Source: Acetivibrionales bacterium (GTDB lineage Bacteria; Bacillota; Clostridia; Acetivibrionales; JBMNNH01). From it: a DNA stretch of 64,000 nt. Location of the stretch: contig JBMNNH010000022.1 of assembly GCA_050953835.1 (NCBI GenBank), positions 25,502 to 89,501 on the forward strand, given 5' to 3'. How positions within the stretch are numbered: position 1 is the stretch's first letter; every line of letters starts with the position of its first letter. A program made the translations under genes and the position numbers. The notes below the pieces were generated by a model. It ran no database searches. It saw only the letters and a list, made by a program, of their open reading frames with translations, and was not told the origin of the DNA. Shown here piece by piece: positions 6,868 through 60,900 of this stretch.

Positions 6868-6958
6868 TGAACAAATGTTCAAACAACGTTTTAATAATTT
6901 AAGCGTTTTTATTTTATAGCTTCAGTGAACAAATGTGCATTGCATGAACGAATGAATA
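6868..6958 (+). promoter_or_regulatory. three operator-like sites related to TGAACAAATGTTCA in the leader
   Basis: There is a perfect 6-2-6 palindrome TGAACAAATGTTCA at 6868-6881 and a one-mismatch copy TGAACAAATGTGCA at 6926-6939. A degenerate copy TGAACGAATGAATA lies at 6945-6958. All three sit between the promoter and the regulator start codon. Confidence 0.5.
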
Positions 6959-6972
6959 AGGTGGGTCATAAT

Positions 6973-7923
6973 ATGGATGAATTTAAAACACTGCTCACAA
7001 AAATTGCCTGGTCATACTATATTAATAATAATACACAGCAAGAAATAGCAGATAAACTCAACATTTCCCGTGTAAAAGTGACTCGATACTTACAAAAAGC
7101 AAGAGATCTTGGAATTGTGAAAATAACCGTATCTTTGGACCATGGCTATTGTTTTGAAAAAGAAGAATTACTAAAAAACCTTTTAAATATTGATGTAGTT
7201 AGTGTTGTTCCATCCACTGAAAAAAAGGAAAATGCTGAAAATGGTATAGGCGTTGCAGGTGCTCTGAGGATGAACCAGCTATTAACTGCAGATGACGTTT
7301 TAGGTGTAGCATGGGGTTTCACACTTTACAGTGTAGCGAAAAACTTACAACCGGTAAAAGAGAAGAACGGAAAGCAAATTCAAGTAGTGCAACTAATGGG
7401 AGGACTATCTCATAGTGATAAAATCAATCCTGAGGAAATTGTAAAAATGATTGCAACCAAGTTAAATGCGCAGGGAAACTGGATGAATGTGCCTGCAGTT
7501 GTTGGTTCAAAAGAAGCCAGGGATATTCTGATGAATGACGAGTCAGTAGCTGAGGTATTTCAGAAAACTAAGGAATGCACTATATGTATGCTTGGATTAG
7601 GTAATCTAACTGAAGCCTCATCTTTATATATGACAGGTGCATATAGTAAGGAAGATCTAAGGGTTTTAAAAGAAGCAGGAGCAGTAGGGGATATACTATC
7701 ACGTCCATATGATATTAATGGGAATCCAATAAAAATACCGCTTTCAGATCGGATTATTGCGGTTTCTTTAGAGCAGATTAAGAGTATAAAAAATAGGGTT
7801 GCGATTGCAGTTGGTAAACCGAAAATAAAAACAATAATCGGAGCTTGCAGAGGCGGGTACATCAATGAGTTAATTACGGACGAAGATACTGCGAATGCTC
7901 TTATTGAATACTTGGAACATTAA
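6973..7923 (+). CDS. SorC/DeoR-type sugar-binding transcriptional regulator
   Basis: N-terminal HTH (QQEIADKLNISRVKVTRYLQKARD) plus a C-terminal sugar-binding domain (GVAWG.T...). AAGGTGGG at 6958-6965 favours ATG 6973 over the track's GTG 6925. Confidence 0.85.
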   Translation: MDEFKTLLTKIAWSYYINNNTQQEIADKLNISRVKVTRYLQKARDLGIVKITVSLDHGYCFEKEELLKNLLNIDVVSVVPSTEKKENAENGIGVAGALRMNQLLTADDVLGVAWGFTLYSVAKNLQPVKEKNGKQIQVVQLMGGLSHSDKINPEEIVKMIATKLNAQGNWMNVPAVVGSKEARDILMNDESVAEVFQKTKECTICMLGLGNLTEASSLYMTGAYSKEDLRVLKEAGAVGDILSRPYDINGNPIKIPLSDRIIAVSLEQIKSIKNRVAIAVGKPKIKTIIGACRGGYINELITDEDTANALIEYLEH

Positions 7924-7990
7924 AATAACAGTTTTTCTGTCTAGTTGGTTTTAATCAAATTCAGATAAATATAAGGAGATATGATGTGGC

Positions 7991-8953
7991 ATGACAGTAC
8001 AAATAAGCAAAGAGAAGCTCGAAGAAATGTATATAAAGATGCTTCATACAAGGAACTTTGAAGAGAAGGTTGCGTACTTTTTTTCTATGGGTATGGTGCA
8101 TGGCACTACCCATCTTTATGTAGGTGAAGAGGCTACTGCAATAGGAGCCTGTTGTGCTCTGGAAGAAAAGGATCTAATAACAAGTACCCACAGGGGGCAT
8201 GGCCACTGCATAGGGAAGGGTATTGACCTTAACAAAATGATGGCTGAACTTCTTGGTAAGGAAACGGGATATTGCAAAGGCAAGGGTGGATCAATGCATA
8301 TTGCTGACCTTACAAGGGGTAATCTTGGTGCAAATGGAGTAGTAGGCGGAGGAATACCAATTGCGGTAGGAGCAGGTATTACTACAAAAATGAAAAAAAT
8401 TGACAGGGTAGTAGTATGTTTTTTCGGTGACGGTGCTGCAAACCAGGGTTCATTCCATGAGTCATTGAATTTAGCATCAGTATGGAAACTACCAATAATA
8501 TTCATCTGCGAAAATAATCTGTACGGTATGTCTGTGCCTATTAAAAAGCATATGAACATAGATGATATATCTATAAGGACTAAAGCATACGGGATTAAAG
8601 GAGAAGTGGTGGACGGAAACAATGTACTTGAAGTATACCAATCTGTATTTAAAGCTAAGAACTATGTAAAAAAGAACGGCCCCATGCTGATTGTAGCTAA
8701 CACCTATAGATGGCTTGGACACTCCAAAAGTGATGCAAATGTATACCGTACCAAGGAAGAGATAAATGAGTGGAAGAAAAAGTGTCCAATAAAGTTTATG
8801 AGGAAGTATCTGGAGGATAACAGGGTATTTACAAAAGATGAGCTGGATGCTTTGGAAAAAAGAGCAAAAGATGATATTGAGAATGCTGTAGAATATGCTC
8901 AACAAAGTCCGTATCCTTCAATTGACACAATACTAGATGATGTTTATGCGTAA
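7991..8953 (+). CDS. acoA: TPP-dependent dehydrogenase E1 alpha subunit (acetoin dehydrogenase AcoA-like)
   Basis: 320 aa, colinear with Bacillus AcoA as I recall it (STHRGHGHCIGKG, GKGGSMHIAD, and FFGDGAANQG..NL TPP motif). Confidence 0.9.
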   Translation: MTVQISKEKLEEMYIKMLHTRNFEEKVAYFFSMGMVHGTTHLYVGEEATAIGACCALEEKDLITSTHRGHGHCIGKGIDLNKMMAELLGKETGYCKGKGGSMHIADLTRGNLGANGVVGGGIPIAVGAGITTKMKKIDRVVVCFFGDGAANQGSFHESLNLASVWKLPIIFICENNLYGMSVPIKKHMNIDDISIRTKAYGIKGEVVDGNNVLEVYQSVFKAKNYVKKNGPMLIVANTYRWLGHSKSDANVYRTKEEINEWKKKCPIKFMRKYLEDNRVFTKDELDALEKRAKDDIENAVEYAQQSPYPSIDTILDDVYA

Positions 8954-8968
8954 GGGGGCATATAGATT

Positions 8969-9946
8969 ATGAGAGAAATAACCTATGCACAGGCTATAAA
9001 AGAGGCAATGTGTGAAGAAATGAGGAAAGATGAGAACGTATTTCTAATGGGTGAAGATGTTGGATTATACGGCGGTGCATTTGGTGTATCTGTTGGTATG
9101 TATCAGGAATTTGGTGAAGAGAGGGTAAAGGACACGCCGATATCTGAAGCTGCAATAGCAGGAGCAGCAGGAGGAGCTGCAGTAACAGGCATGAGGCCTA
9201 TTGCGGAAATAATGTTCAGTGATTTTACCAGCATAGCCATGGACCAACTTGCTAACCAGGCTGCAAAGATGAGATATATGTTTGGAGGAAAGGCCAAGGT
9301 ACCAATGGTGCTAAGGACACCGGGAGGATCGGGCACTGGGGCTGCGGCACAACATTCACAAAGTATAGAAGCATGGTTTTGCCACGTACCCGGTCTTAAA
9401 GTGGTAGTACCCTCAACACCATATGATGCAAAGGGGCTTTTGAAAGCCGCAATAAGGGATGACAATCCTGTTATGTTTTTCGAGCAAAAGCTCTTATACA
9501 GGAAAAAAGGTCCTGTTCCGGAGGAAGAATACATTATCCCTCTGGGAGAAGCGGAAATAAAGAGAGAAGGAAAAGATGTTACTGTCATAACCTATGGAAG
9601 GATGGTTCCGCTTTGTCTTGAAGTTGCCGGGGAACTTTCAAAGGAAGGAATAGACATAGAGATTTTAGACCCGAGGACTCTGATACCATTGGACAAGGAA
9701 GCAATAATAAAGTCTGCAAAAAAGACGGGCAGGGTACTAATTGTGCATGAAGCATGCCAGACAGGGGGCTTTGGTGGTGAGATAGCCGCAGTGATAGCCG
9801 ACAGTGAAGCATTCTTTTACCTTGATGCACCAGTCAAGAGGCTTGGAGGACTTGATGTACCCATACCATATTGTCCTGAGCTGGAGAAAAATGTGGTACC
9901 CACTTTTGAAAAGGTAAGGGAAGCAATATACGAATTGATAAAGTAA
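8969..9946 (+). CDS. acoB: alpha-ketoacid dehydrogenase E1 beta subunit (AcoB-like)
   Basis: 325 aa with a transketolase-like pyrimidine-binding domain and the E1-beta C-terminal domain ([30 protein letters not shown]). Confidence 0.9.
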
Positions 9947-9958
9947 GGGGGGCTACAC

Positions 9959-11263
9959 TTGGCACATAAAGTAATCATGCCAAAAGCAGGAATGGCAATG
10001 GAAGAGGGAAAAATACTAAGGTGGTTTATTAAGGAAGGGGAATGGATAGAAAAAGGAGACCCACTTCTGGAGATAGAAACTGATAAAGTAAATATGGAAA
10101 TCGAATCAATGGATACAGGTTACCTTTTAAAGATAGTAAAAGGCGAGGGGGAAGTGGTGCCTGTAACTAAAACAATTGGATATATTGGTGAAAAGGGAGA
10201 AATCATTGAGGAAGAGGCAGAAGATGGTACCGGCGGAAAAGTTGCCCAAAATTTGCTGGCGGATAATACAAAAGCTGCTTTGGAAACGCCAAACAGCATT
10301 GGGAAGCTTGAGCAGTCAGCCGGAAAAGTACCAGCTACACCACTTGCAAAAACCTTGGCGAAGGAAAAGGGTATTGATATAAAAGGCATAACAGGAACTG
10401 GAAGCTTTGGAGAAATAAAAGCAAGAGATATAGAAAAGGCTGGAAGAATTAAGGCTACCCCATTGGCGAGTAGGATTGCCAATGACAAGGGCATTGACAT
10501 ATCCTCTATAGAAGGTTCTGGGCACCTGGGCAAGGTGAGGAAAGAAGATATTGAAATATTTGAAAGGCAGGAAGAGAAAGCAGACGCTTTAAGAATTCCA
10601 TTAAAGGGAATGCGGAAGATAATAGCTGAAAGAATGCTAAAGAGCCATACAGAGATACCTACTGTAACGCTGAATGCGAAAGCAGATGTTACAGAGCTTT
10701 ATGAAATCAGGAAACAAATTAACCAGAGCGGAAGAAACAGGATTACTATTAACGACTTTATACTAAAAGCTGCTGCATCGGCACTAAAGGAATCACCATA
10801 CATTAATGCCAGCCTGGAAGGTGATGAAATTGTACAAAAGGAAGAAATAAATATTGGAATGGCAGTAGCCCTTGAAGAAGGGCTTATAGTGCCTGTAATA
10901 AGAAATGCCGATAAACTGTCGCTTAATGATATTTCAAAAAGAGCAAAGGATCTTGCCAAGAGAGCAAGGGACGGAAAACTCAGCCCTGATGAATACAAGG
11001 GAGGAACATTCACGGTAAGCAATTTAGGAATGTATGGCATAGTATCCTTCACGCCAATAATAAACCAACCAGAAAGTGCAATATTAGGGGTATGCAGTAT
11101 AGAAGAAGAGTTAAAAATGATAGGCGGAAAAATTGAAGAAAGGAAGGTCATGGGGCTTAGCCTGACATTTGACCACAGAGTAGTCGATGGGGCCCAGAGT
11201 GCCTTATTTCTGAACAAGATAAAATCACTGCTTGAAAATCCACTGGAACTTGTGATTTTGTAA
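9959..11263 (+). CDS. acoC: dihydrolipoamide acetyltransferase E2 (AcoC-like)
   Basis: It has a lipoyl domain (EIETDKV), two tandem subunit-binding domains, and a catalytic domain with DHRVVDG. The TTG start lies 6 nt after a GGGGGG run. Confidence 0.9.
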   Translation: MAHKVIMPKAGMAMEEGKILRWFIKEGEWIEKGDPLLEIETDKVNMEIESMDTGYLLKIVKGEGEVVPVTKTIGYIGEKGEIIEEEAEDGTGGKVAQNLLADNTKAALETPNSIGKLEQSAGKVPATPLAKTLAKEKGIDIKGITGTGSFGEIKARDIEKAGRIKATPLASRIANDKGIDISSIEGSGHLGKVRKEDIEIFERQEEKADALRIPLKGMRKIIAERMLKSHTEIPTVTLNAKADVTELYEIRKQINQSGRNRITINDFILKAAASALKESPYINASLEGDEIVQKEEINIGMAVALEEGLIVPVIRNADKLSLNDISKRAKDLAKRARDGKLSPDEYKGGTFTVSNLGMYGIVSFTPIINQPESAILGVCSIEEELKMIGGKIEERKVMGLSLTFDHRVVDGAQSALFLNKIKSLLENPLELVIL

Positions 11264-11307
11264 ATATTAGTCGAACAATAGATTTTAGCACATAAGGAGT
11301 GGTACTA

Positions 11308-12684
11308 TTGGCAGAAAAATTTGATGTAGCAGTAATAGGCGGGGGTCCTGCGGGGTATATAGCTGCAATTAAGGCATCACAGCTTGGCGGCAGGGTTGCG
11401 CTGGTAGAAAAGGATGAATTAGGGGGAACATGCCTTAACAGGGGCTGCATCCCTACCAAAACCTATCTGAAGAATGCTGAAATTATTGAAAGTATGATGC
11501 ACTCTTCAGAAAGAGGAATTGGCATAGACACAAAAACATTAAAGATAGACATAAAAAGGACAGTAGAATACAAAAACAGCGTTGTAAAAACTTTGACATC
11601 CGGGATAGCGGGGCTCCTAAAGAGCAATGGTGTAAAAGTATATAAAGGGACAGGGAAGATTACAAAAGAAAGAAAAGTAATTGTCGATGATAAGGAAGAA
11701 ATAAATGCAAATAAAATAATTATTGCCAGTGGCTCAAAGGCAATAAGGATAAACATTCCGGGAATTGAAAGCAGGCATATTCTAACAAGCGATGAGATTC
11801 TTGAATTGAAGGAAATACCAAATAAGCTTGCCGTAATAGGTGGAGGAGTAGTAGGTATTGAATTTGCAACGGCTTTTAATGCTTTTGGGAGTGAGGTAAC
11901 AGTAATTGAGCTTGAAGACAGAATACTTCCATTTATGGACAAAGATATTTCAAATGAACTTACAAAGGAACTTACTACAAAAGGCATAAGAATAATCAAC
12001 TCAAAGAAGATTGAAGAAATAATAGAAAAAAGCGGAAAACTAATGCTCAAACTTTCAGGTAATGAAGAGGTAAAAGCAGACAAGGCGCTTTTATCCATAG
12101 GCAGGTCACCCGATATTGAGGCTCTTGGTGAAGTGAAGGTTTCTATGGAAAGAGGCAGGATAAAGGTTAATGAATATATGGAAACCAGTATAGAGGGCAT
12201 ATATGCACCAGGGGACGTAAATGGAAGGAGTATGCTTGCTCACGCAGCTTTTAAAATGGGGGAAGTTGCAGCGATGAATGCAATGGGGAAAAAGGAGAAA
12301 GCAGACCTGAAGAATGTACCCAGCTGTGTATATACATTCCCTGAAATAGGAACAGTGGGACTCAGTGAAGATAAAGCAAAAGAGAAATACGATGTAAGCA
12401 TAGGGAAATTTCCCTTTGCAGCTAATGGACGTGCTTTGGCTTCAGGAGAGAGGCAAGGCTTTGTAAAGGTTGTAGCGGACAAAAAATATGGTGAAGTTTT
12501 AGGTGTGCATATTATAGGGCCAGGTGCAGCAGAAATGATAAATGAAGCAGCCTCGCTTATGGAAATGCAGATAACCACCCATGAGATATCCGGAATAATA
12601 CATGCGCATCCAACGTATTCTGAAGCATTTATGGAGGCTGCAGCGGACAGTCTGGGTAAATGTATGCATTTGCCGAAAAAGTAA
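11308..12684 (+). CDS. lpdA: dihydrolipoyl dehydrogenase E3
   Basis: It carries a GGGPAGY FAD motif, the redox disulfide CLNRGCIPTK, and a C-terminal HAHPTYSE. AAGGAG at 11294-11299 favours TTG 11308 (MAEKFDVAVIGGG) over the track's GTG 11299. Confidence 0.93.
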   Translation: MAEKFDVAVIGGGPAGYIAAIKASQLGGRVALVEKDELGGTCLNRGCIPTKTYLKNAEIIESMMHSSERGIGIDTKTLKIDIKRTVEYKNSVVKTLTSGIAGLLKSNGVKVYKGTGKITKERKVIVDDKEEINANKIIIASGSKAIRINIPGIESRHILTSDEILELKEIPNKLAVIGGGVVGIEFATAFNAFGSEVTVIELEDRILPFMDKDISNELTKELTTKGIRIINSKKIEEIIEKSGKLMLKLSGNEEVKADKALLSIGRSPDIEALGEVKVSMERGRIKVNEYMETSIEGIYAPGDVNGRSMLAHAAFKMGEVAAMNAMGKKEKADLKNVPSCVYTFPEIGTVGLSEDKAKEKYDVSIGKFPFAANGRALASGERQGFVKVVADKKYGEVLGVHIIGPGAAEMINEAASLMEMQITTHEISGIIHAHPTYSEAFMEAAADSLGKCMHLPKK

Positions 12685-13197: not shown

Positions 13198-14001
13198 ATG
13201 GCAGTAATTTCTATGAAACAACTTTTAGAAGCAGGAGTTCATTTTGGGCACCAGACAAGGAGATGGAATCCCAAAATGGCAGAGTATATCTTTACAGAAA
13301 GGAACGGTATATATATTATTGACCTTCAAAAAACTGTAAAGAAAGTTGAAGAGGCATATTTCTTTATTAGAGAACTTACAGTAAATGGAGAAGATGTGTT
13401 ATTCGTTGGGACTAAAAAGCAGGCGCAGGATTCAATTAAGGAAGAAGCTGAAAGATGCTCACAGTATTATGTGAATGCAAGATGGCTTGGTGGCATGCTA
13501 ACAAACTTTAAGACTATTCGTAAAAGGATCGACAGGTTGCGTCAGTTGGAAGAGATGGAACAGAATAATATTTTTGATGTATTACCCAAAAAAGAAGTTA
13601 TCAAGCTTAAGTCTGAAATGGAAAAGCTTGAAAAGAACCTGGGCGGGATTAAAAATATGAAGAAACTGCCCGGAGCGATGTTTGTTGTCGATCCAAGGAA
13701 AGAAAGAATTGCAATATTGGAAGCAAGGAAACTTGGAATACCTGTTGTCGCTATAGTTGACACAAATTGTGACCCTGATGAAGTGGATTATGTTATTCCG
13801 GGTAATGATGATGCAATCAGGGCTGTGAAACTGATTGCAGGGAAAATGGCCGATGCAGTACTTGAAGGAAGACAAGGTGAACAGTTTGATAATGAAGAGA
13901 GAGCTGAGGAGACAGAATCAGTTTTAGATTTAAATAATGAAGAAGAAAATGAAGCAGCAGAGGAAGCTGTTGAGGAAGAAACAGAAACAGATGCTGAGTA
14001 A
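13198..14001 (+). CDS. rpsB: 30S ribosomal protein S2
   Basis: [27 protein letters not shown] follows AAGGAGG. The track's upstream extension (13123) has no homology support. The C-terminus has an acidic tail. Confidence 0.95.
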
Positions 14002-14009
14002 CAGTAAAT

Positions 14010-14046
14010 CCGGTCTTCAGTCTGAGAAGGCTGGGACCGGTTTTTT
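14010..14046 (+). terminator. rpsB terminator
   Basis: CCGGTC...GACCGG stem (14010-14015 / 14035-14040) followed by TTTTTT. Confidence 0.7.
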
Positions 14047-14157
14047 ATTTAACTTATAAAAGCTTAAAGATAGGCGTTTATTTTTTAATAAATCGGAAAA
14101 TATGTATATAGAAAATATGTATATTATACAAATAAAATAAAGTTTGGAGGAGTATCG

Positions 14158-14805
14158 ATGATTAATGCTAGTATGGTGAAGGAACTTCGTGAGAGAACCG
14201 GAGCAGGAATGATGGATTGTAAAAAAGCTCTAACCGAGGCTAATGGAAATATGGATAAGGCTATTGAGTTATTAAGGGAAAAGGGCCTTGCAGCTGCTGC
14301 TAAAAAATCAGGAAGAATTGCGGCAGAAGGCATGGTTGACGCATACATACACGGTGATGGAAGAATTGGTGTCCTGGTAGAGGTTAATATTGAGACAGAT
14401 TTTGCAGCGAAGAATGAAGATTTTAGGGCTTTTGTGAAAGATATAGCTATGCAGATTGCTGCAAGTAAACCTGAGTATGTAAGCAGGGAAGAAGTGCCAG
14501 CTGAGGTCGTGGAAAAAGAAAAAGAAATACTTAAGGCTCAGGCCTTAAATGAAGGCAAGCCTGAAAAGGTTGTTGATAAAATGGTAGAGGGCAGAATAGA
14601 AAAATTCTATAAGGAAATATGCCTGCTCGATCAACCTTTCATAAAAGATCCTGATAAAACTGTGCAGCAGCTTCTGACAGAGAAGATTTCAACTATTGGA
14701 GAGAACATAAAAATCAGGAGGTTTGTAAGGTACGAAAGAGGCGAAGGCATTCAAAAGAAGGAAGAAAATTTTGCAGATGAGGTTATGAAGCAAATAAATG
14801 GCTAA
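14158..14805 (+). CDS. tsf: translation elongation factor Ts (short form)
   Basis: N-terminal UBA-like [19 protein letters not shown]; 215 aa. Confidence 0.95.
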
Positions 14806-14813
14806 CTGCTAAA

Positions 14814-14844
14814 GGGAACATATATAAATATGTGTTCCCTTTTA
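14814..14844 (+). terminator. tsf terminator
   Basis: GGGAACA (14814-14820) pairs with TGTTCCC (14833-14839) and is followed by TTTT. Confidence 0.75.
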
Positions 14845-31590: not shown

Positions 31591-31720
31591 TATTATACAT
31601 TTACCTTGACATGTATGTATAATTTTTCAATTATTGGGATTGTACGCTTAGTCCACCACTAATATAATGTTTATCTCAAGTATATAATATATATATAAGC
31701 TATTTAAGAGGTGGAGCATC

Positions 31721-32461
31721 TTGGATTTCAACTTTGATTTTGACCCTGCAAATCCCCATAAGATATTTCTTACTCCTCAATTAAAACAGGCACTGGAAAT
31801 CCTAATAATGAGTACACACGAACTATATAATTATGCTTACCGTCAAATAGAAATAAATCCTGCCCTGGAGATTTCAACAGAAGATGAAAGTACCTGTGAA
31901 AGCGGCCTCGTGACTACTGTTGAGCAGGTTGACTGGGAACATGAAGTGCTTTCCGGGCACGATACACTGGATGAAGATGGCGGATATGCTGAACGCAACA
32001 ATGGTACTATTGCTGAAAGGACCGCCTCCAGGCCAAATTTAAGGGAGTTTATCCCGTATATAATATGTGATGTCAGTGTAAAAGGGATAAGGAATAACTT
32101 TGAGGTTATACTGAACGAAGATGCTTTTCCTAATCTAAAGATAAGCAAATGTTTCATGGATATAATGGCTCAGGACACAAGCCCTGATACCAGAAAATTT
32201 ATACAGGACAGGATTAATAGAGCAAAATGGCTTATAAAGTGCATTGAGAAACGAAAGAGTATACTCAGAAGAATAACAGAATACATTACCAGAAGCATGC
32301 CCGAATTTTTTTCAAAAGGCAGGGATTTTTTAAAGCCCTTGAAAATTGATGGGGCAGTGGTACAGTTAAATTTACCTGAATATGTTTTTAAAGCAGCTAT
32401 AATAAATAAGTACCTGCAATGCCGTTGGGGCAGTTTTGAGATGAAGGCTTTTTTTGATTAA
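31721..32461 (+). CDS. truncated/degenerate sigma-54 (RpoN/SigL)-like protein lacking the core-binding domain and RpoN box
   Basis: aa 16-50 (FLTPQLKQALEILIMSTHELYNYAYRQIEINPALE) resembles RpoN region I. aa 110-246 aligns with the RpoN DNA-binding region up to FEMKxFF (RKSILRRITEYITRSMPEFFSKGRDFLKPL...GSFEMKAFFD). The TTG start follows AAGAGGTGGA. Confidence 0.6.
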   Translation: MDFNFDFDPANPHKIFLTPQLKQALEILIMSTHELYNYAYRQIEINPALEISTEDESTCESGLVTTVEQVDWEHEVLSGHDTLDEDGGYAERNNGTIAERTASRPNLREFIPYIICDVSVKGIRNNFEVILNEDAFPNLKISKCFMDIMAQDTSPDTRKFIQDRINRAKWLIKCIEKRKSILRRITEYITRSMPEFFSKGRDFLKPLKIDGAVVQLNLPEYVFKAAIINKYLQCRWGSFEMKAFFD

Positions 32462-32766
32462 AAAGGCCACCTAGGTTTGGAGGGAGTAGTTTTTAGGCCT
32501 AGAAAACCTTCTATTCCATTGCTGCCAAAGTAATCTCTTTCAATTTCCCTTATTCTTTCTTCGGTGTAATAGTTTATCTCTCCTACTTTTTTTACATCAT
32601 CAGCATAATCTCTCAATCTCTGCATTTCTTTAGAGGTTAATGCTGACTGGCATCCTTCTGAGTTCAATATGCGCTTCAATTCTGATGAGTACTCATAACC
32701 GTCATCCATATCCTTTAAAGCGTTCTTTAAAAAATACTTTAGACTTTCCGGTATCTGGCGTTCCAT
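32458..32766 (-). CDS. hypothetical small protein (102 aa)
   Basis: AAGAGGTGA SD with ATG at 32766 (MERQIPESLKYF...) and TGTATAAT upstream on the minus strand. The track's longer N-terminus reads through the promoter. I recognise no family. Confidence 0.5.
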   Translation of the reverse strand: MERQIPESLKYFLKNALKDMDDGYEYSSELKRILNSEGCQSALTSKEMQRLRDYADDVKKVGEINYYTEERIREIERDYFGSNGIEGFLGLKTTPSKPRWPF

Positions 32767-32897: not shown

Positions 32898-33056
32898 ATG
32901 GGTGTGAGAAAATATAGCAGAAAGCTTCCGGCGGTTATTAAACTGTACAGTAATGAGAAATACTGGGAAAAGGTACTGGAGGAAATAGTTAATATTTATA
33001 TGGAGAAATACTATTTTTGGGAAACTATAAGGAATGATAATAATGGTATTGAATAA
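32898..33056 (+). CDS. possible 52-aa ORF overlapping the recombinase start
   Basis: MGVRKYSRKLPAVIKLYSNEKYWEKVLEEIVNIYMEKYYFWETIRNDNNGIE, preceded by AGGGTGG. It is below the track's size cut-off and I recognise no homolog. Confidence 0.3.
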   Translation: MGVRKYSRKLPAVIKLYSNEKYWEKVLEEIVNIYMEKYYFWETIRNDNNGIE

Positions 33057-34599
33057 TGCTACAGGGAATTCTAATGTTGGTATTTATGTCAGGGAAAGCA
33101 GGGACGACAACGAGGAGAACTATGATACCATAGAAACCCAAAGGGATCTACTTATAAATTTCGTTAATAAGAATAATTTTGGGGAAATAGTGGGTATATA
33201 TATGGATAATAACGCTTCAGGAGCCGGTTTTGACCGGGGAGGGATTTTCCAGTTAAGGAAGGACATTGAGGGAAGAAAAATTGACCTGCTTATTATTAAA
33301 GATTTATCTAGGTTAGGCAGAAACAATGCAAAAACCTTGCTCTTTCTCGATTACCTCGAAGAAAATGGGGTACGTGTTCTGACCTATGACGGAAGGTATG
33401 ACAGCGTCAGGGATAATGAGACTGTAGGTATTGAAACCTGGTTTAATGAAAGGTATATCCAGGATATATCAAAGAAGATAAGAGCCAGTTTAAGGTTCAA
33501 AATCGAAAAAGGAGAATATATAGGCCGCGCACCCTTTGGCTACAAAAAACCAGGCAAGGGGAAAAATAAACTTTGTATTGATGAGGATACATGCCATATT
33601 ATTAAAGAAATTTTTAATCTTTACCTGCAGGGATACGGGTATTCATCCATATCAAAAATACTGGACAACAGGGGGTACCCTTCACCTTCAATGGGGAAGT
33701 GGAATCCTGTGGCAGTACAAAGGATCCTTTCAAATCGTGTGTATATTGGAGATACTGTTCAGGGTGTAAGTGAGAAAGTCAGTTATAAAAGTAAAAAAAG
33801 AAGGCGGCTTCCCGGGAACGAATGGAAAATAACTGAGGGAACCCATGAAGCTATAATAAGCAAAGAAGAGTTTAATGAAGTCCAGAGATTGAGAGGCTCC
33901 AGAAGAGCTTCACACGGCCCGCATAAAGGGACAATACATCTTTTCAGGGGTACTCTCTACTGCGGCAGGTGTGGAAGTACCATGTATGCCAGAAAAAGAA
34001 CAAACCGGCCTATGGGGTATGTTTGCAGCAACTATAGTAAGCACGGAAGGGGTGTGTGCACAAGCCACTACATTAATGAAAGCCTATTGGAGAGTATAAT
34101 TGCGGATGAAATAACCTGTATATTCATGAATGAAGCAGTGATAAAAAAAATTAAGAATTATCTTGATAACACTGGAGCCAGAATTAATGATGCTTCAAAA
34201 AAAAGGGAGAGTGTTAGAAAGAGGTTAGCGGTAAAATTGAAACAGCAGGAAATACTATACATGGACAGACTGCACAGGAAAATCTCGGAAGAGCTCTTTT
34301 TAAGGATAAACAGCAATTTAGAAAATGATATAGGGTACTTAAAAAGGGAAATAAGAAGGATAAGTAATACAAATAATGAAGATTTTAAGGCAGAAAAGAT
34401 TATTGAGTATATTATCAAAGACTTTAAAGAAAAGGGTTTATCACAAAGCATAATAAAATTGGTAATAAACAGGATAACAGTGTTTGATGAATATGACAAA
34501 GAAGTATTTAAAGAGGCATTTAACTTGTCTGCTGAAAAACATGCATGCGACAATTGGAATGGAGCAGTTGTTATTGATTTTAAAGGAAATAAGGTGTAA
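33043..34599 (+). CDS. large serine recombinase (resolvase/recombinase + zinc-ribbon + coiled coil)
   Basis: N-terminal catalytic domain (VGIYVRESRDD, ASGAGFDRGG, KDLSRLGRN), a recombinase domain, a CGRCG...C..Y..H..C zinc ribbon, and a C-terminal coiled coil. The start is ATG 33043 or 33034. Confidence 0.88.
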   Translation: MVLNNATGNSNVGIYVRESRDDNEENYDTIETQRDLLINFVNKNNFGEIVGIYMDNNASGAGFDRGGIFQLRKDIEGRKIDLLIIKDLSRLGRNNAKTLLFLDYLEENGVRVLTYDGRYDSVRDNETVGIETWFNERYIQDISKKIRASLRFKIEKGEYIGRAPFGYKKPGKGKNKLCIDEDTCHIIKEIFNLYLQGYGYSSISKILDNRGYPSPSMGKWNPVAVQRILSNRVYIGDTVQGVSEKVSYKSKKRRRLPGNEWKITEGTHEAIISKEEFNEVQRLRGSRRASHGPHKGTIHLFRGTLYCGRCGSTMYARKRTNRPMGYVCSNYSKHGRGVCTSHYINESLLESIIADEITCIFMNEAVIKKIKNYLDNTGARINDASKKRESVRKRLAVKLKQQEILYMDRLHRKISEELFLRINSNLENDIGYLKREIRRISNTNNEDFKAEKIIEYIIKDFKEKGLSQSIIKLVINRITVFDEYDKEVFKEAFNLSAEKHACDNWNGAVVIDFKGNKV

Positions 34600-34651
34600 T
34601 ATTTAATCATCGTTAATATTATTTGCCAAATACCAGATATGGAGGGGTAAT

Positions 34652-54951: not shown

Positions 54952-57900
54952 GTGAATAATGAGAGGGCTTACTATCCATTAACATACCCACAGAAGGGGA
55001 TATGGTACACTGAAAAAATGTATCCTGGGACAAGCATATGTAATATTGCAGGCACAGTAAAAATTTTTGGAAAAGTAGATTGTGTACTGCTCGAAAAAGC
55101 TATAAACATTCTCATTGAAAGAAATGATTCTTTAAGGATTAGAATTACTATTCATGATGACGAACCTGCACAATACATTTCACCATACGAATATAAACAT
55201 ATTGATTTTTTCGATTTCAGTAATGATGGCCTGAACAGCATGTATAAATGGGAAGAGAAAGAAACACCCAAACCGTTTCAAATAATTGAATCCGATTTGT
55301 TTTATTTTGCCATATTGAAAATCAATAACACAGATTATAGGTTTTATATAAAGACACATCATCTGGTATCAGACGCATGGACAATGAATTCCATAGTCAA
55401 TCAGGTTATGGATAATTACACAAAACTGGTTGAAGGCAAAAGCATCAGCAGTGAAAAGAAACCATCATATATAGAATATATAAACAGGGAAAATGATTAT
55501 AAGAGTTCTAAAAAATTTATAAAGGATAAAATTTTCTGGGACAAAGTCTTCGAAGACATGCCGGAAATAAGCACATTGAAAACGCAGGATGAAAATCTGA
55601 AGTCAACTGCTGCAGAAAGAAAGCCATTTATTATTCCGGGAAATCTGGCAGCAAGAATTAATGATTTTTGTTTAAGCAATAAAATTTCTATATTTACTTT
55701 TTTTCTTTCTTTTCTTGCAGTATATATTCACAGGATTACTTTCAAAGATGATATTGTAATAGGCACTCCTGTGTTGAACAGATCGAATTACAGGGAAAAG
55801 GATATGCTGGGAATGTTTATTAGCACTATTCCCATAAGGATACAAATTGACAGCACAATGGATATTACTTCGTTTATTAAAAAATTATCAAAGGAATGGT
55901 TTGTTTTTTTAAAACACCATGAATATCCTTATGAACTTCTGATAAAAGATATTAGGAGCAAGCATAAAGGTGTAAAAAACCTGTATGATGTTATTCTTTC
56001 TTATCAGAATGCAAAACTTATAAAAGAGGGCTGTATTCATAGCTTTGAAGGAAGATGGCATTTTAGCGGATATCAGAAGGATTCACTGTATATTCATATA
56101 AATGACAGGGAAGCAGACGGAAACCTAATAATGGACTACGATTTTGTTACCCAATATTTTACTTCTGAAGATATAGAGAACATTCATAAACGGCTACTTG
56201 TTATTCTGCAGGATGCAATGGAAAACCCGCAGAAGAAGATATATGAATTGGAAATAATGGATGCTGAGGAAAAGAAGAATGTTTTATACAAGTTTAACAA
56301 CAGCGAAGCTGATTATCCAAAGGGTAAGACTATAAACCGGTTATTTGAAGAACAGGTGGAAAGAACCCCTGACTCTATTGCTGTTATATTTGAGGATAAA
56401 AGGCTTACATACAGGGAATTGAATAGTAAAGCCAATAAGCTGGCAAGAGAACTGAGAAGGATGGGAGTTGGACCTGAAAGCATAGTTGCAGTTATGCTGA
56501 GACGATCCCTGGAAATGGTTATTGGTATTATAGGTGTTTTAAAAGCTGGTGGAGCATATTTGCCGTTAGATCCTGATTATCCTGAAGAAAGGCTATCCTT
56601 TATGATGGATGATAGCAATGTGGAGGTGTTATTGACTCATTCTGATATAAAAAAAGACTTTGCATTTAAAGGCAAAAGAATTCTTATTAACCAACAGGAT
56701 ACATCTATGATTAGTGACTCAAATTTGCCAGATGTTAATGATGCCAACCATCTTATATATGTAATCTACACATCAGGTTCTACAGGGAAGCCGAAGGGGG
56801 TTATGCTGGAGCATAGATCAGTAGCTAATTTTATTAAAGGCGTAAAGGATAAAATAGATTTTTCCCCGGGGAAAACTATCTTGTCAGCAACAACAATATG
56901 CTTTGACATATTTGTCCTTGAAACTTTACTGCCGTTAACCAGCGGACTGAAAGTTGTTATTGCTAATGAAAATGAGCAGAAAATACCAAGGATGTTGAGT
57001 AAAGCGATTTTGAGAAACAATGTAACAATGTTTCAAACTACACCTTCACTAATGCAGCTATTGTTAAATGATGCAGACGGCTCTTCATGCCTTAAAAACC
57101 TCTCAGAACTCATGATAGGAGGAGAAGCATTCCCACAAAAGATGTTGGAAAGACTGAAGGAAATTACAGAAGCAAAGATATATAATATGTATGGCCCTAC
57201 TGAAACAACTGTATGGTCAACAATTAAAGATTTAACCAAGTCATGTAAAATTAGTATTGGGACGCCTATAGCTAATACACAGATTTATATTTTGGACAAA
57301 TGTTTAAATCCTGTTCCAATAGGTATTATTGGGGATATGTATATTGGTGGCGATGGTCTTGCACGAGGGTATCTGAACAGGCTCGAACTTACCAGGGACA
57401 GATTTATAGAAAACCCTTTCATTTCAGGTAAAAAGGTGTATAAAACCGGTGATGTTGCCAGATGGCTCCCTGAAGGAGAAATAGAGTGTCTAGGGAGAAG
57501 TGATAATCAAGTAAAAATACGGGGATTAAGGATTGAATTAGAAGAAATTGAAAACCATATTCTAAAGCATCCTTCAGTGAAGGAAGCCGTTGTAATAGAC
57601 AGGGAAGACAGTAAAGGGACAAAATACCTGTGTGCATATGTGGTGCTCAACAGCGAAGTTGAGCTGTCTGAGATAAGAAACTATTTAACCGGTAAACTTC
57701 CAATATATATGGTACCCTCTTACTTTATCGTAATTGATAAAATACCTTTAACTCAGAATGGTAAGGTTAACAGAAAGGTACTTCCAGAACCCAGTGTTGA
57801 TTGTTACAGAATTGATGATTATGTTCCGCCATCAAATCCTATTGAGGTTAAACTCTGTGATATGTGGTCTGAAATTCTTAATATTGATAGAATTGGCATA

Positions 57901-60900
57901 AATGATAATATTTTAGAATTGGGGGGCGATTCACTCACTATAATCTCTATAGCCTCTTTGATTTATAAGGAGTTTAGTATAGAGATTTCAATAGAGGATA
58001 TTTACAGAAGGCCTACAATAAATGCATTAGGAAGTTTTATTGAAAAAGCAAAGAGGAATGAGTTTTTACCAATTACTGTTATAGAGAGGAAAAAGTATTA
58101 CCAATTATCATCTGCACAAAAAAGACTATATATACTTTCACAGCTCGAGAATAACAATACTGTAAACAATATCCCATGGGTCATGGCAGTGGATGGAAGT
58201 ATTGATGTCAATAAACTGGAAAGTGTGCTTAAGCGGTTGATAGCTAGGCATGAATCATTAAGAACGGGGTTTACAATATTTAATGGGACTCCTGTACAGG
58301 AAGTTTTTGATATAACAGACTTCAAAGTTGAATATTATAGAGCAAAAGAAGAGGAAATAGAGGGTATTGTTGAAAAATTCATAAGACCATTTGATTTGGG
58401 CACACCTCCTCTGCTAAGAGCTGGCCTTATTGAAATATCAAAAAAGAGATATATACTTATGCTTGACATGCATCACATAATCTCTGATGGTGCTTCGCTT
58501 AATATTCTGTTAAAGGAATTAGTGGATATTTATAATGGAAAGGAACTGCCTGATCTCAAAGTGCAGTACAAGGATTATTCAGAATGGCAGAGACAACTTA
58601 TTAAAACTGAAACAGTTAGAAAACAGAAAGACTATTGGCTAAAAGTGTTTTCTGATGAAATACCGGTTTTAAACCTGCCTTACGACTATCAAAGGCCTCC
58701 TATACAGGACTTTGTTGGAGATAGGGTGAGCTTCAGGGCAAATAAGGAGCTTACAGCTAAACTAAAGAAGTTATCGTTGAGTACAGGTACCACATTGTAT
58801 ATGTTGCTTCTGGCAGCATATAATATTCTATTGGCTAAGTATTCCGGACAGGAAGATATAATAATTGGTTCGCCTGTTGCTGGCAGAAACTATTTTGATT
58901 TGGAGGGTATGGTTGGGGTATTCATAAATACAGTTGCAATGAGAAATAAGCCTGTTGGCCGGAAGACATTTACTGAGTTTTTAAGTGAAGTTAAGGAAAA
59001 CTCGATAAAGGCTTTTTCAAATCAGGATTACCCATTTGAAGAATTAGTGGGCAGATTAAAGCTTATTAGAGATTTAAGCCGAAATCCACTTTTTGATACA
59101 ATGTTTATTTTGCAAAGTAGTGGTTTAACAGAGTTAGAAACTTACGATTTTAAACTAAAAGCTTATGAATTTAAACATAATGTATCCCAATTCGATTTGT
59201 TGTTGGGTGCAGTCGAGGAAAAAGATGAAATCCTATTTGTATTTGATTATTGTACCAAACTTTTTAATAGGGATACTGTTGAGAGATTTGCAAACCACTT
59301 CCTCAATATATTAATTAGGGTAACTGAAAACCCTGATTTGAAGCTTTTGAATATCGACCTTCTTTCTGAAGAAGAAAGATGCCGGTTATTATTTGAGTTT
59401 AACAGAACAAAGACAGGCTTTCCATGTGATAAAACAGTTCACAAGCTATTTGAAGAGCAGGTTGAAAGAACACCGGAAAAAACTGCAATTGTTTTTGAGG
59501 ATAAAGAATTAACTTATAGGGAGTTAAATGAGAAATCCAACCAACTAGCAAGATTATTAAGGGAAAAGGGTGTTAAGTCAAACAGTATCGTTGGAATAAT
59601 GATAAACAGGTCACTTGAAATGATAATAGGTATTATGGGGATTATTAAGTCAGGAGGCTCTTACCTGCCTATTGATCCTGATTTTCCTGAAAACAGGATC
59701 AAATATGTATTAAATGACAGCAATGTAGATATTGTCATTACTAATAGCTCCCTTAAACCAAAAGTTTACACAGATAGTAACGTTATTCTAATCGATGAAA
59801 TTAAGAATTCTGATTTTAGTACAAAAAACCTTGAGAATATAAATAAGCCGGAAGATTTGATTTATGTAATATACACTTCAGGCTCAACCGGAAACCCTAA
59901 AGGGGTAATGCTTACTCACAGGTCCGTAATAAACTTTATTAAAGGAGTTACAGACAAAATTGGTTTTTCATCTAATAAGACAATAATATCTCTGACTACT
60001 ATTTCTTTTGATATATTTGTGCTTGAAACACTGCTTCCATTAGTAAAAGGTTTAAAGTGTGTGATAGCAAATGAGGATCAGCAGAAACAACCAAAGCTTT
60101 TAAGCGAAGCTATTATTAGGAATAAAGTTGATATGCTTCAGATAACTCCTTCCAGGCTTCAGTTACTTATTGAGTATGAAGATTTTTTTAATTGTTTAAA
60201 GCTTTTATCTGAGATTATGGTTGGAGGCGAAGCTTTTCCCCAGCAGCTTCTTGATAAACTAAAAAAATTAACAAAAGCCCGTGTATATAATATGTATGGA
60301 CCAACAGAAACTACAGTATGGTCAACAATTAAAGACTTAACAGTTTGCGAAAAAGTAAATATCGGAAGTGGGATAGCAAATACTCAGCTATATATATTAA
60401 ATGCAGACTTGAACCCTGTACCTATAGGCGTTCCAGGAGATTTATACATTGGTGGAGAAGGCCTTGCAACAGGGTATTTAAATAACCCTGAGCTAACAGA
60501 TGAAAGATTTATTCCCAATCCTTTTATTGAGAATGAAAGAATTTATAAAACAGGGGATATTGCAAGGTGGCTTAATAATGGAGATATTGAATGTTTAGGT
60601 AGAATTGATCATCAGGTAAAAATTATGGGACATAGGATAGAGCTGGAAGAGATTGAAAACAAACTCCTTGAAATTGAATGTGTAAAAGAGGCAGTAGTAA
60701 CTGTGAGAAGAAGCAAAAAGAGCACTCCGTACTTATGTGCATATATTGTGTTAAGCCCTAATAGAGAAATATCCGCAAAAGAGCTGAGGGATTATTTATT
60801 AAAAAACCTTCCTGTATATATGGTGCCAACTAGTTATTCTTTCATTAATAATATTCCTCAAACGCCTAATGGTAAGATTGACAGAAAGTTCTTATCCGAA

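Follow-up and report, generated by a model that had tools for sequence, protein, structure and literature searches.

The analysis concerns a stretch of 64 kb of genomic DNA (referred to as the window) from an Acetivibrionales bacterium and, within it, a short plus-strand gene at positions 31721-32461 that encodes a protein related to sigma-54 (RpoN, SigL), the bacterial sigma factor which locks RNA polymerase inactive until it is remodelled by an ATPase. The open reading frame (ORF) begins with TTG, ends with TAA and specifies 246 amino acids. An initial annotation, made from the letters of this DNA, had described the frame and a good Shine-Dalgarno (SD) sequence in front of it, and both were verified, the latter as GAGGTG at 31708-31713, 7 nt 5' of the start codon. 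An identical protein (P0001; here and below, P-labels denote proteins and L-labels loci) is recorded at NCBI as 'hypothetical protein ACOX7R_09930' of a metagenome-assembled genome (MAG) named Acetivibrionales bacterium. Pfam, NCBIfam and PDB matches relate the gene product to sigma-54, and the similarity far exceeds chance. The term mini is used for this gene and for all forms that are devoid of both most of the core-binding domain (CBD) and the RpoN domain.

Profile searches were employed to delimit the parts of sigma-54 that are kept. Region I, the activator-interacting domain, occupies residues 16-51 (31766-31873, plus strand), where the Sigma54_AID profile (PF00309) matches with an E-value of 4.5e-9 and 36.4 bits, above the Pfam gathering cutoff of 23.8; a PQLKQA motif found to be invariant in the family alignment lies within this segment. 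It is followed by an acidic linker that resembles region II (RII) of sigma-54 (residues 55-111, 31883-32053, plus strand), has 15% identity to its counterpart at locus L001 and carries the in-frame junction of a CBD deletion, at which LREF is joined directly to IPYII. What remains of the CBD is a C-terminal tail or beta-hairpin (residues 111-143, 32051-32149, plus strand), as the Sigma54_CBD profile (PF04963) matches these 33 residues only, with its positions 151-183 of 185 and a score of 19.5 bits that stays under the cutoff of 22.9. The C-terminal part (residues 159-245, 32195-32455, plus strand) consists of the extra-long helix (ELH) and the helix-turn-helix (HTH) and matches positions 2-88 of the 160 positions of the Sigma54_DBD profile (PF04552) with an E-value of 6.4e-16, whereas positions 89-160 are absent. 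A phmmer comparison with PDB sequences aligned residues 14-57 to residues 12-56 of Escherichia coli sigma-54 and residues 112-245 to residues 270-403 (E 1.5e-21), with the residual CBD tail placed on residues 270-300; residues of approximately 57-269 (RII and CBD) and those beyond 403 (RpoN domain) have no counterpart.

The mini ORF terminates one residue past FEMKAFF, and the RpoN domain with its RpoN box is missing. Neither the motif scan nor tblastn revealed remnants of the CBD or of the RpoN box (ARRTVAKYR) elsewhere in the 64 kb window in any frame. Relative to the related protein P0003 the CBD has lost about 130 residues, close to the 120 residues estimated earlier. The HTH recognition helix is degenerate and reads PEYVFKA (within LPEYVFKAA) instead of the HESTVSR of full-length orthologues. 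The domain balance given in the initial annotation, with region I and part of the DNA-binding region kept, the core-binding domain and the RpoN box gone and the recognition helix decayed, is therefore borne out by the profiles. TIGR02395, the NCBIfam equivalog model for rpoN, returns 118.7 bits against a cutoff of 277.35 and all other rpoN models of NCBIfam also remain far under their cutoffs; judged from its sequence, the window protein is not classifiable as a sigma factor. Two cysteine residues are invariant in 26 of 26 aligned family members, namely C174 (32240-32242) in a WLIKC motif on the long helix and C234 (32420-32422) in an LQCRWG motif after the HTH; E. coli sigma-54 has a serine at both positions.

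AlphaFold2 modelling with a family alignment of 26 sequences yielded a predicted TM-score (pTM) of 0.71, and the per-residue confidence (pLDDT) exceeded 90 for residues 21-50 and 112-246. Region I was modelled as two helices (19-29 and 32-45) at a pLDDT of 94-95, followed by a disordered linker (residues 55-111, pLDDT below 50), three strands that represent the residual CBD (118-123, 126-131 and 139-141), a long helix of 38 residues (155-192) and the HTH helices, these last parts again at a pLDDT above 90. The top PDB matches in a Foldseek search were all sigma-54 chains in RNA polymerase complexes, with TM-scores of 0.64-0.67 for alignments that span region I and the ELH-HTH, and the C-terminal domain alone superposes on sigma-54 chains with a root-mean-square deviation of 1.8-2.3 A over 133-135 residues. 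The mini protein is thus predicted to fold as a native-like region I-ELH/HTH module.

The family was mapped by combining protein-database matches and their genomic contexts with a scan of GTDB species genomes, which contributed 46 loci, and with tblastn searches for the neighbouring genes. Besides the identical protein, the protein database contains P0002 (246 aa, 43% identical over the full length), P0006 (295 aa) and about 25 proteins of 350-390 aa. P0002 occurs in anaerobic-digester runs, among them SRR36563500, SRR29026321 and SRR13298159. The order of genes at the locus is 5-formyl-tetrahydrofolate cyclo-ligase, a CPBP/Rce1-like protease, the sigma-54 gene, a convergent gene termed p103, a small ORF and a large serine recombinase; it is kept in the 46 GTDB loci and in metagenomic loci, and one clade extends the locus with DAGK and SpoIVA. 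At about 10 loci (L011, L014-L018, L020, L021, L023 and L024) the same slot holds full-length sigma-54 genes of 448-459 aa with the RRTVAKYR box. Because of this synteny the mini gene is the local orthologue of sigL/rpoN of Acetivibrionales-type Clostridia. Canonical sigma-54 (TIGR02395; E. coli RpoN in 5NWT, 8F1I and 9MSE; Bacillus subtilis SigL) is therefore not only homologous to the window protein but orthologous by synteny, and the two have in common region I, which is predicted to dock in a native-like manner, an acidic RII-like linker and the fold of the ELH-HTH. The window protein differs from it by the missing 130 or so CBD residues, by the missing RpoN domain and box and by the degenerate recognition helix.

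Approximately 30 loci, each from a different GTDB species, contain a third type of gene of 357-390 aa, which has region I, an intact CBD and the ELH-HTH and ends 1-17 residues past FE(L/M)xxFF. These RpoN-less orthologues (P0003-P0028, L005-L056) share with the window gene the locus, the promoter, the TTG start, the end after FE(L/M)xxFF and the WLIKC and LQCRWG motifs. They are distinguished from it by a well-conserved CBD (IGEYLIDNTDENGYL, DPPGICARNLKECLL and LEPRPGREF), with which they could still bind core RNA polymerase, and by a clade-specific HTH with the motif HESILxKAL. Proteins devoid of most of the CBD are encoded at this locus in the window and at L001-L003, where the RpoN domain is missing too, at L012 (likewise RpoN-less) and at L004 (P0006), where the RpoN box is kept. 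An exhaustive search of 1.84 billion representative proteins added further reduced forms: P0035 (239 aa, mini), P0042 (220 aa), P0058 (307 aa, CBD-less and with a decayed RpoN box) and two proteins with partial CBDs (P0039 and P0031). Region I and the ELH-HTH are retained in every reduced form.

Trees were built from two data sets, the sigma-54 columns that the proteins share and the neighbouring protease and ligase genes, and in both of them all members of one large clade have the CBD and lack the RpoN domain. Another, clade A, mixes all four architectures, namely full length, RpoN-less (L019, L006, L013), CBD-less (L004) and mini (L012; the window with L001). At least three or four losses of the RpoN domain and at least two of the CBD took place, as the window and L001 form one CBD-less lineage and L012 and L004 belong to another; P0035 and P0058 are further examples. 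The window protein and its 43%-identical orthologue have the same CBD deletion junction, in which an LKEY-type motif at the start of the CBD is joined straight to IPYII, and the common junction and length indicate one ancient in-frame deletion that was followed by long retention. The recognition helix follows this history. It is HESTVSR in the full-length genes and in L012 and L019, and since their HTH is still canonical the truncations at these two loci are apparently recent. Within the large RpoN-less clade HESIL(D/E)KAL is conserved, and the helix of the old mini forms is idiosyncratic (PEYVFKA in the window, HKQVLIN at L001).

Selection on these genes was estimated by the method of Nei and Gojobori, with the window and L001 as the mini pair. 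In the RpoN-less clade the ratio of nonsynonymous to synonymous substitution rates (dN/dS) is 0.08-0.14 (nine pairs) versus 0.09-0.27 for full-length pairs, so that purifying selection on the truncated proteins is at least as strong as on real sigma-54 genes. The mini pair differs at a proportion of 0.76 of synonymous sites (pS), which is saturated, and at 0.31 of nonsynonymous sites (pN); both proteins have 246 aa and their alignment has 4 gap columns. Among the parts of the protein, region I (0.24) and the ELH (0.26) have the smallest pN, followed by the HTH (0.34) and, highest of all, the linker (0.47). A single open frame was found at all of 55 loci, none of which has a frameshift or an internal stop, and TTG is the start codon at 44 of them. 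About 60 nt 5' of the gene are conserved whether the locus is mini, truncated or full-length, as was seen in an alignment of 27 orthologous upstream regions. The conserved region in the window (31646-31720, plus strand) comprises a TATAAT -10 box at 31683-31688, a leader and the SD sequence, and the common pattern is CATTA-CTAAAG-N13-GGTATATAATAyT-ATATAACCy-TTTTGC-GAGGTG-N7-TTG. This conservation suggests that, besides the -10 box, an operator or a leader element has been kept here. It holds across proteins that are merely 30-45% identical, and the region contains a near-direct repeat, TATATAA..TATATAA.

The mini gene is kept intact by purifying selection and is not debris. The initial annotation had left the choice between an in-frame decayed relic and a retained protein, and of these two the retained protein is favoured by the identical junction and length in the 43%-identical orthologue at saturated synonymous sites. 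It had also considered that relatives might carry the remains of a plain pseudogene at this locus, for which there is no sign: no frameshifted copy was found among the 55 loci, dN/dS is low and the expression signals are conserved. A subtler form of decay has nevertheless to be weighed, in which a sigma-54 gene erodes deletion by deletion once the sigma-54 regulon has gone together with its activators, the enhancer-binding proteins of bacteria (bEBPs), and in which the frame of the gene has not yet been broken. Such erosion would be in keeping with the recurrent domain losses of varying extent in clade A (L019, L012, L004, P0031, P0039, P0058), some of which look recent, with a canonical HTH in L012 and L019, and with the fact that the mini form is the fastest-evolving gene of its neighbourhood (43% identity versus 56-89% for the flanking genes). 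Nor were components of a sigma-54 regulon seen in the sequence scanned, i.e. the window and about 930 kb of related loci, a sample too small to be informative on bEBPs, promoters or a second rpoN gene. The bEBP motifs (GAFTGA, ESELFGH and Walker A) did not occur inside ORFs, and the loci with full-length genes are equally blank, which makes this result uninformative; the strict scan for sigma-54 promoters gave one match (L025:18354) versus approximately 1.8 estimated by chance and is uninformative as well. On the other hand, two lineages with saturated synonymous sites have kept a frame of 246 aa, and a neutral frame of 246 codons in a genome of 37.6% GC would, by estimate, be expected to have gained many stops. 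The constraint is domain-specific, the promoter, SD sequence and start codon are conserved along with the intact frames, and dN/dS in the RpoN-less clade is about 0.1. A non-functional relic is for these reasons regarded as quite unlikely.

What the retained protein might do can be approached from the known division of labour in sigma-54. Anchoring of the factor to core RNA polymerase is the task of the CBD, the dominant reader of the -24 element is the RpoN domain, which forms an independent module, and the HTH reads the -12 element (PMC5095919). Region I and the ELH/HTH form a distinct '-12 regulatory centre' above the cleft between the beta and beta' subunits, which blocks the entry of DNA and is contacted by bEBPs (PMC5095919). 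The earlier statement that the mini protein cannot act as a sigma factor follows from these structure-function relations. As it has no core anchor, no -24 reader and a degenerate -12 recognition helix, we infer with considerable confidence that it is not a promoter-specificity factor. One way around this conclusion would be a working sigma-54 of several subunits, to which separate polypeptides supply core binding and -24 reading in trans; the two-subunit SigO-RsoA of B. subtilis is a precedent for a multi-subunit sigma factor. The structural independence of the RpoN domain from the rest of sigma-54 (PMC5095919) would suit such an arrangement, as would the fact that the retained module is the regulatory heart of the factor. 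However, in the 31 kb to each side of the gene in the window, and in 8-10 kb of flanking DNA to each side at about 50 related loci, no stand-alone ORF for a CBD or RpoN domain was present. A protein search for orphan RpoN domains, of low sensitivity and by itself uninformative, with the C-terminus of P0006 as the query, gave two matches of 85 aa only, both of them genes cut by contig ends. Together with the degenerate -12 recognition helix, these results render a multi-subunit sigma-54 very improbable.

The mini protein has probably taken on a new regulatory task other than that of a sigma factor. The module under selection is precisely the one that touches bEBPs and the polymerase cleft, which makes binding to one of these partners in trans the most economical function. 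The reading preferred here, with a probability of roughly 0.5, is that the gene encodes a selectively retained, stand-alone region I-ELH/HTH module that acts in trans on AAA+ activators or on RNA polymerase. An ancestral sigL/rpoN gene would have been reduced by two in-frame losses, one of about 130 CBD residues and one of the whole RpoN domain. The remaining parts, region I, the acidic linker and the ELH/HTH, are those that in real sigma-54 pack as the '-12 regulatory centre', the docking site of the AAA+ activator. The mini protein might occupy the partner of this centre, be it the loops with which an AAA+ activator contacts sigma-54 or the cleft of RNA polymerase, and could in this way, as a decoy or an inhibitor, damp or gate the activity of that partner.

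Several points weigh against this proposal. The mini form evolves fast, as stated above, and ongoing erosion could be another way to read the mix of architectures in clade A. The saturation of dS in the mini pair precludes a proper omega for the mini form, and its long-term retention rests on one deep pair (the window versus L001-L003) together with independent singleton minis. Furthermore, the affinity for RNA polymerase may be negligible without the CBD, and a decoy of bEBPs has no target if the genome encodes neither a bEBP nor a second intact rpoN gene. The same evidence of conservation, i.e. intact frames, selection and upstream signals, would equally apply to a retained protein whose function is unrelated to activators and RNA polymerase, its fold having been co-opted for a new partner, possibly in connection with the nearby p103, serine recombinase and SpoIVA region or with sporulation. 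A remodelled HTH surface, which carries HESIL(D/E)KAL in the RpoN-less clade and yet another sequence in the minis, the two invariant cysteines of the family and the tight linkage with p103 and the recombinase, to which DAGK-SpoIVA is added in the truncated clade, are features that such a change of partner might explain. Ordinary full-length sigma-54 genes have the same neighbours, though, and the linkage is consequently not specific to truncated forms; the activator-interacting signature of region I is still canonical and scores above the Pfam gathering cutoff, and an alternative partner is suggested by no data. Co-option for a new partner is considered unlikely.

Retention as a module that acts in trans can be placed in a wider and more tentative scheme. 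Zhang and Buck have speculated that sigma-54 domains acted in trans as a system for the repression of RNA polymerase before a promoter-specific sigma-54 existed (PMC5095919). It is conceivable, as a rather speculative extension, that within a single order of Clostridia the regulatory centre has become independent of sigma function. It would have persisted at first in a core-binding protein without the RpoN domain (about 30 species) and later, by convergence in several lineages, as stand-alone modules of approximately 220-250 aa; these proteins would serve as global or activator-gated brakes that act in trans on RNA polymerase or AAA+ ATPases, and would form a natural counterpart of the repression system postulated by Zhang and Buck. 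The proteins are classified here as a sigma-54-derived, non-sigma family, of which the window gene is the most reduced, convergently evolved form. To our knowledge, the domains of sigma-54 have so far been separated in the test tube only. The Buck laboratory reportedly supplied region I fragments of sigma-54 in trans in vitro. Fragments of that kind resemble the mini protein in being region I polypeptides that act on holoenzyme or activator in trans without binding of core or DNA, and they provide a conceptual model for a decoy or inhibitor. They are laboratory constructs, whereas the window gene is natural and conserved, has kept the ELH-HTH partner of region I and is known here from its sequence. 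A description of RpoN-domain-less or mini sigma-54 orthologues was not found in the searchable literature, and a paper on the sigma-54 regulons of Clostridiales does not mention a truncated SigL.

The family represents a natural separation of sigma-54 domains, with one clade under strong selection without the promoter-reading domain and several lineages that have only the inhibitory, activator-docking module. If the proteins are active, they would constitute a new class of sigma-derived regulators that act in trans and a natural setting in which to study region I-ELH/HTH on its own, and they would bear on the question of how enhancer-dependent transcription came about or is being dismantled. 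A practical point concerns annotation. The NCBI copy of the window protein is annotated as 'hypothetical protein' and one family member at JGI as 'RNA polymerase sigma-54 factor', and such annotations would mislead the reconstruction of regulons in cellulolytic and anaerobic-digester Clostridia.

The genes downstream of the mini gene are arranged as a module. The gene p103 is a convergent ORF of 102 aa on the minus strand (32458-32766), and its stop codon overlaps that of the sigma-54-like gene. It has 57-78% identity in nearly all loci, beside full-length and truncated sigma-54 genes alike, and is better conserved than the sigma-54 gene. An ORF of 52-77 aa that overlaps the start of the recombinase gene accompanies the module; neither this small ORF nor p103 matched a Pfam, NCBIfam or PHROG family. 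The distance between the sigma-54-like stop and p103 is 40-100 bp at other loci, but about 1.9 kb of extra DNA is found at the RpoN-less loci L013 (8280-10149) and L025 (11080-12962). The large serine recombinase (33034-34599, plus strand) has Resolvase, Recombinase and Zn_ribbon_recom domains and is assigned to phrog_95 (integrase). More than 35 species have it at one and the same chromosomal position, and it is CcrB/XisF-like, with scores far under the cutoffs. A fixed and vertically inherited large serine recombinase beside spoIVA is unusual.

Large serine recombinases of spore formers are known to cut out gene-intervening elements, as in skin/sigK, SPbeta/spsM and gin/gerE (PMC5595907, PMC4191935, PMC5025042), and a truncated sigma-family gene beside such an enzyme, close to spoIVA in a spore-forming, Clostridium-type genome, bears an obvious likeness to the skin-type systems. 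By analogy, the mini gene could be one part of a split rpoN that is rebuilt, perhaps during sporulation, when the recombinase excises or inverts the intervening element; gene reconstitution specific to sporulation has precedents (PMC5595907, PMC4191935). Besides the recombinase gene 570 bp downstream and the small ORF that overlaps its start, two observations would accord with this: all truncated genes stop at the same protein position, and the module is bracketed by a weak inverted repeat (32455-72 and 34592-609). Yet the p103 and recombinase module also follows full-length orthologues with the RpoN box (L011, L015, L017, L018, L021, L023 and L024). No 3' fragment with an RpoN box is present in the 31 kb around the gene in the window or in the 8-10 kb that flank it at the related loci, and the protein search for orphan RpoN domains gave only genes cut by contig ends. 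The junction sequences at the gene end are not conserved between loci, truncated genes have their own terminator hairpins, and the deletion of the CBD cannot be explained by a split gene. Reconstitution of a split gene is effectively refuted, and the resemblance to skin-type systems, in which a 3' fragment and intact orthologues without the element would be expected, is a resemblance only.

The adjacent recombinase was likewise rejected as the cause of the truncation, as the same module is found beside full-length orthologues. The initial annotation was silent on this point, as it was on the orthology to full-length sigma-54 genes and on the large RpoN-less family. The inverted repeat I15 (32455-32472 and 34592-34609), situated at the stops of the sigma-54-like gene and of the recombinase gene, is 18 nt long, imperfect and 78% complementary. 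An invertible segment bounded by it was considered and discarded; the repeat is not conserved in L001, L005 and L007 and probably arose by chance. No conserved att-like repeats were detected around the recombinase module. At L017 (MAG 'uncultured Acetivibrio sp.') the recombinase gene is interrupted, with its N-terminal part at 7465-7848 and its C-terminal part at 13787-14839, and the insert of about 6 kb contains another, divergent serine recombinase gene, which lies on the opposite strand (10534-9482).

Two further regions of the window deserve mention. An operon of the aco/pyruvate dehydrogenase type (6925-12684) encodes a SorC-type regulator with a Sugar-bind domain, E1 alpha, E1 beta, E2 and E3, as had been described earlier, and no bEBP gene is adjacent to it. 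The initial annotation had taken this operon to be consistent with the loss of a sigma-54 regulon; an aco operon regulated by a SorC-type protein is compatible with such a loss but is not evidence for it. Further downstream, an ORF of 2480 aa (54952-62394) contains an adenylation-type motif of non-ribosomal peptide synthetases (KIRGLRIELEEIE), which came to light in a chance tblastn line, and the encoded protein may be a non-ribosomal peptide synthetase.

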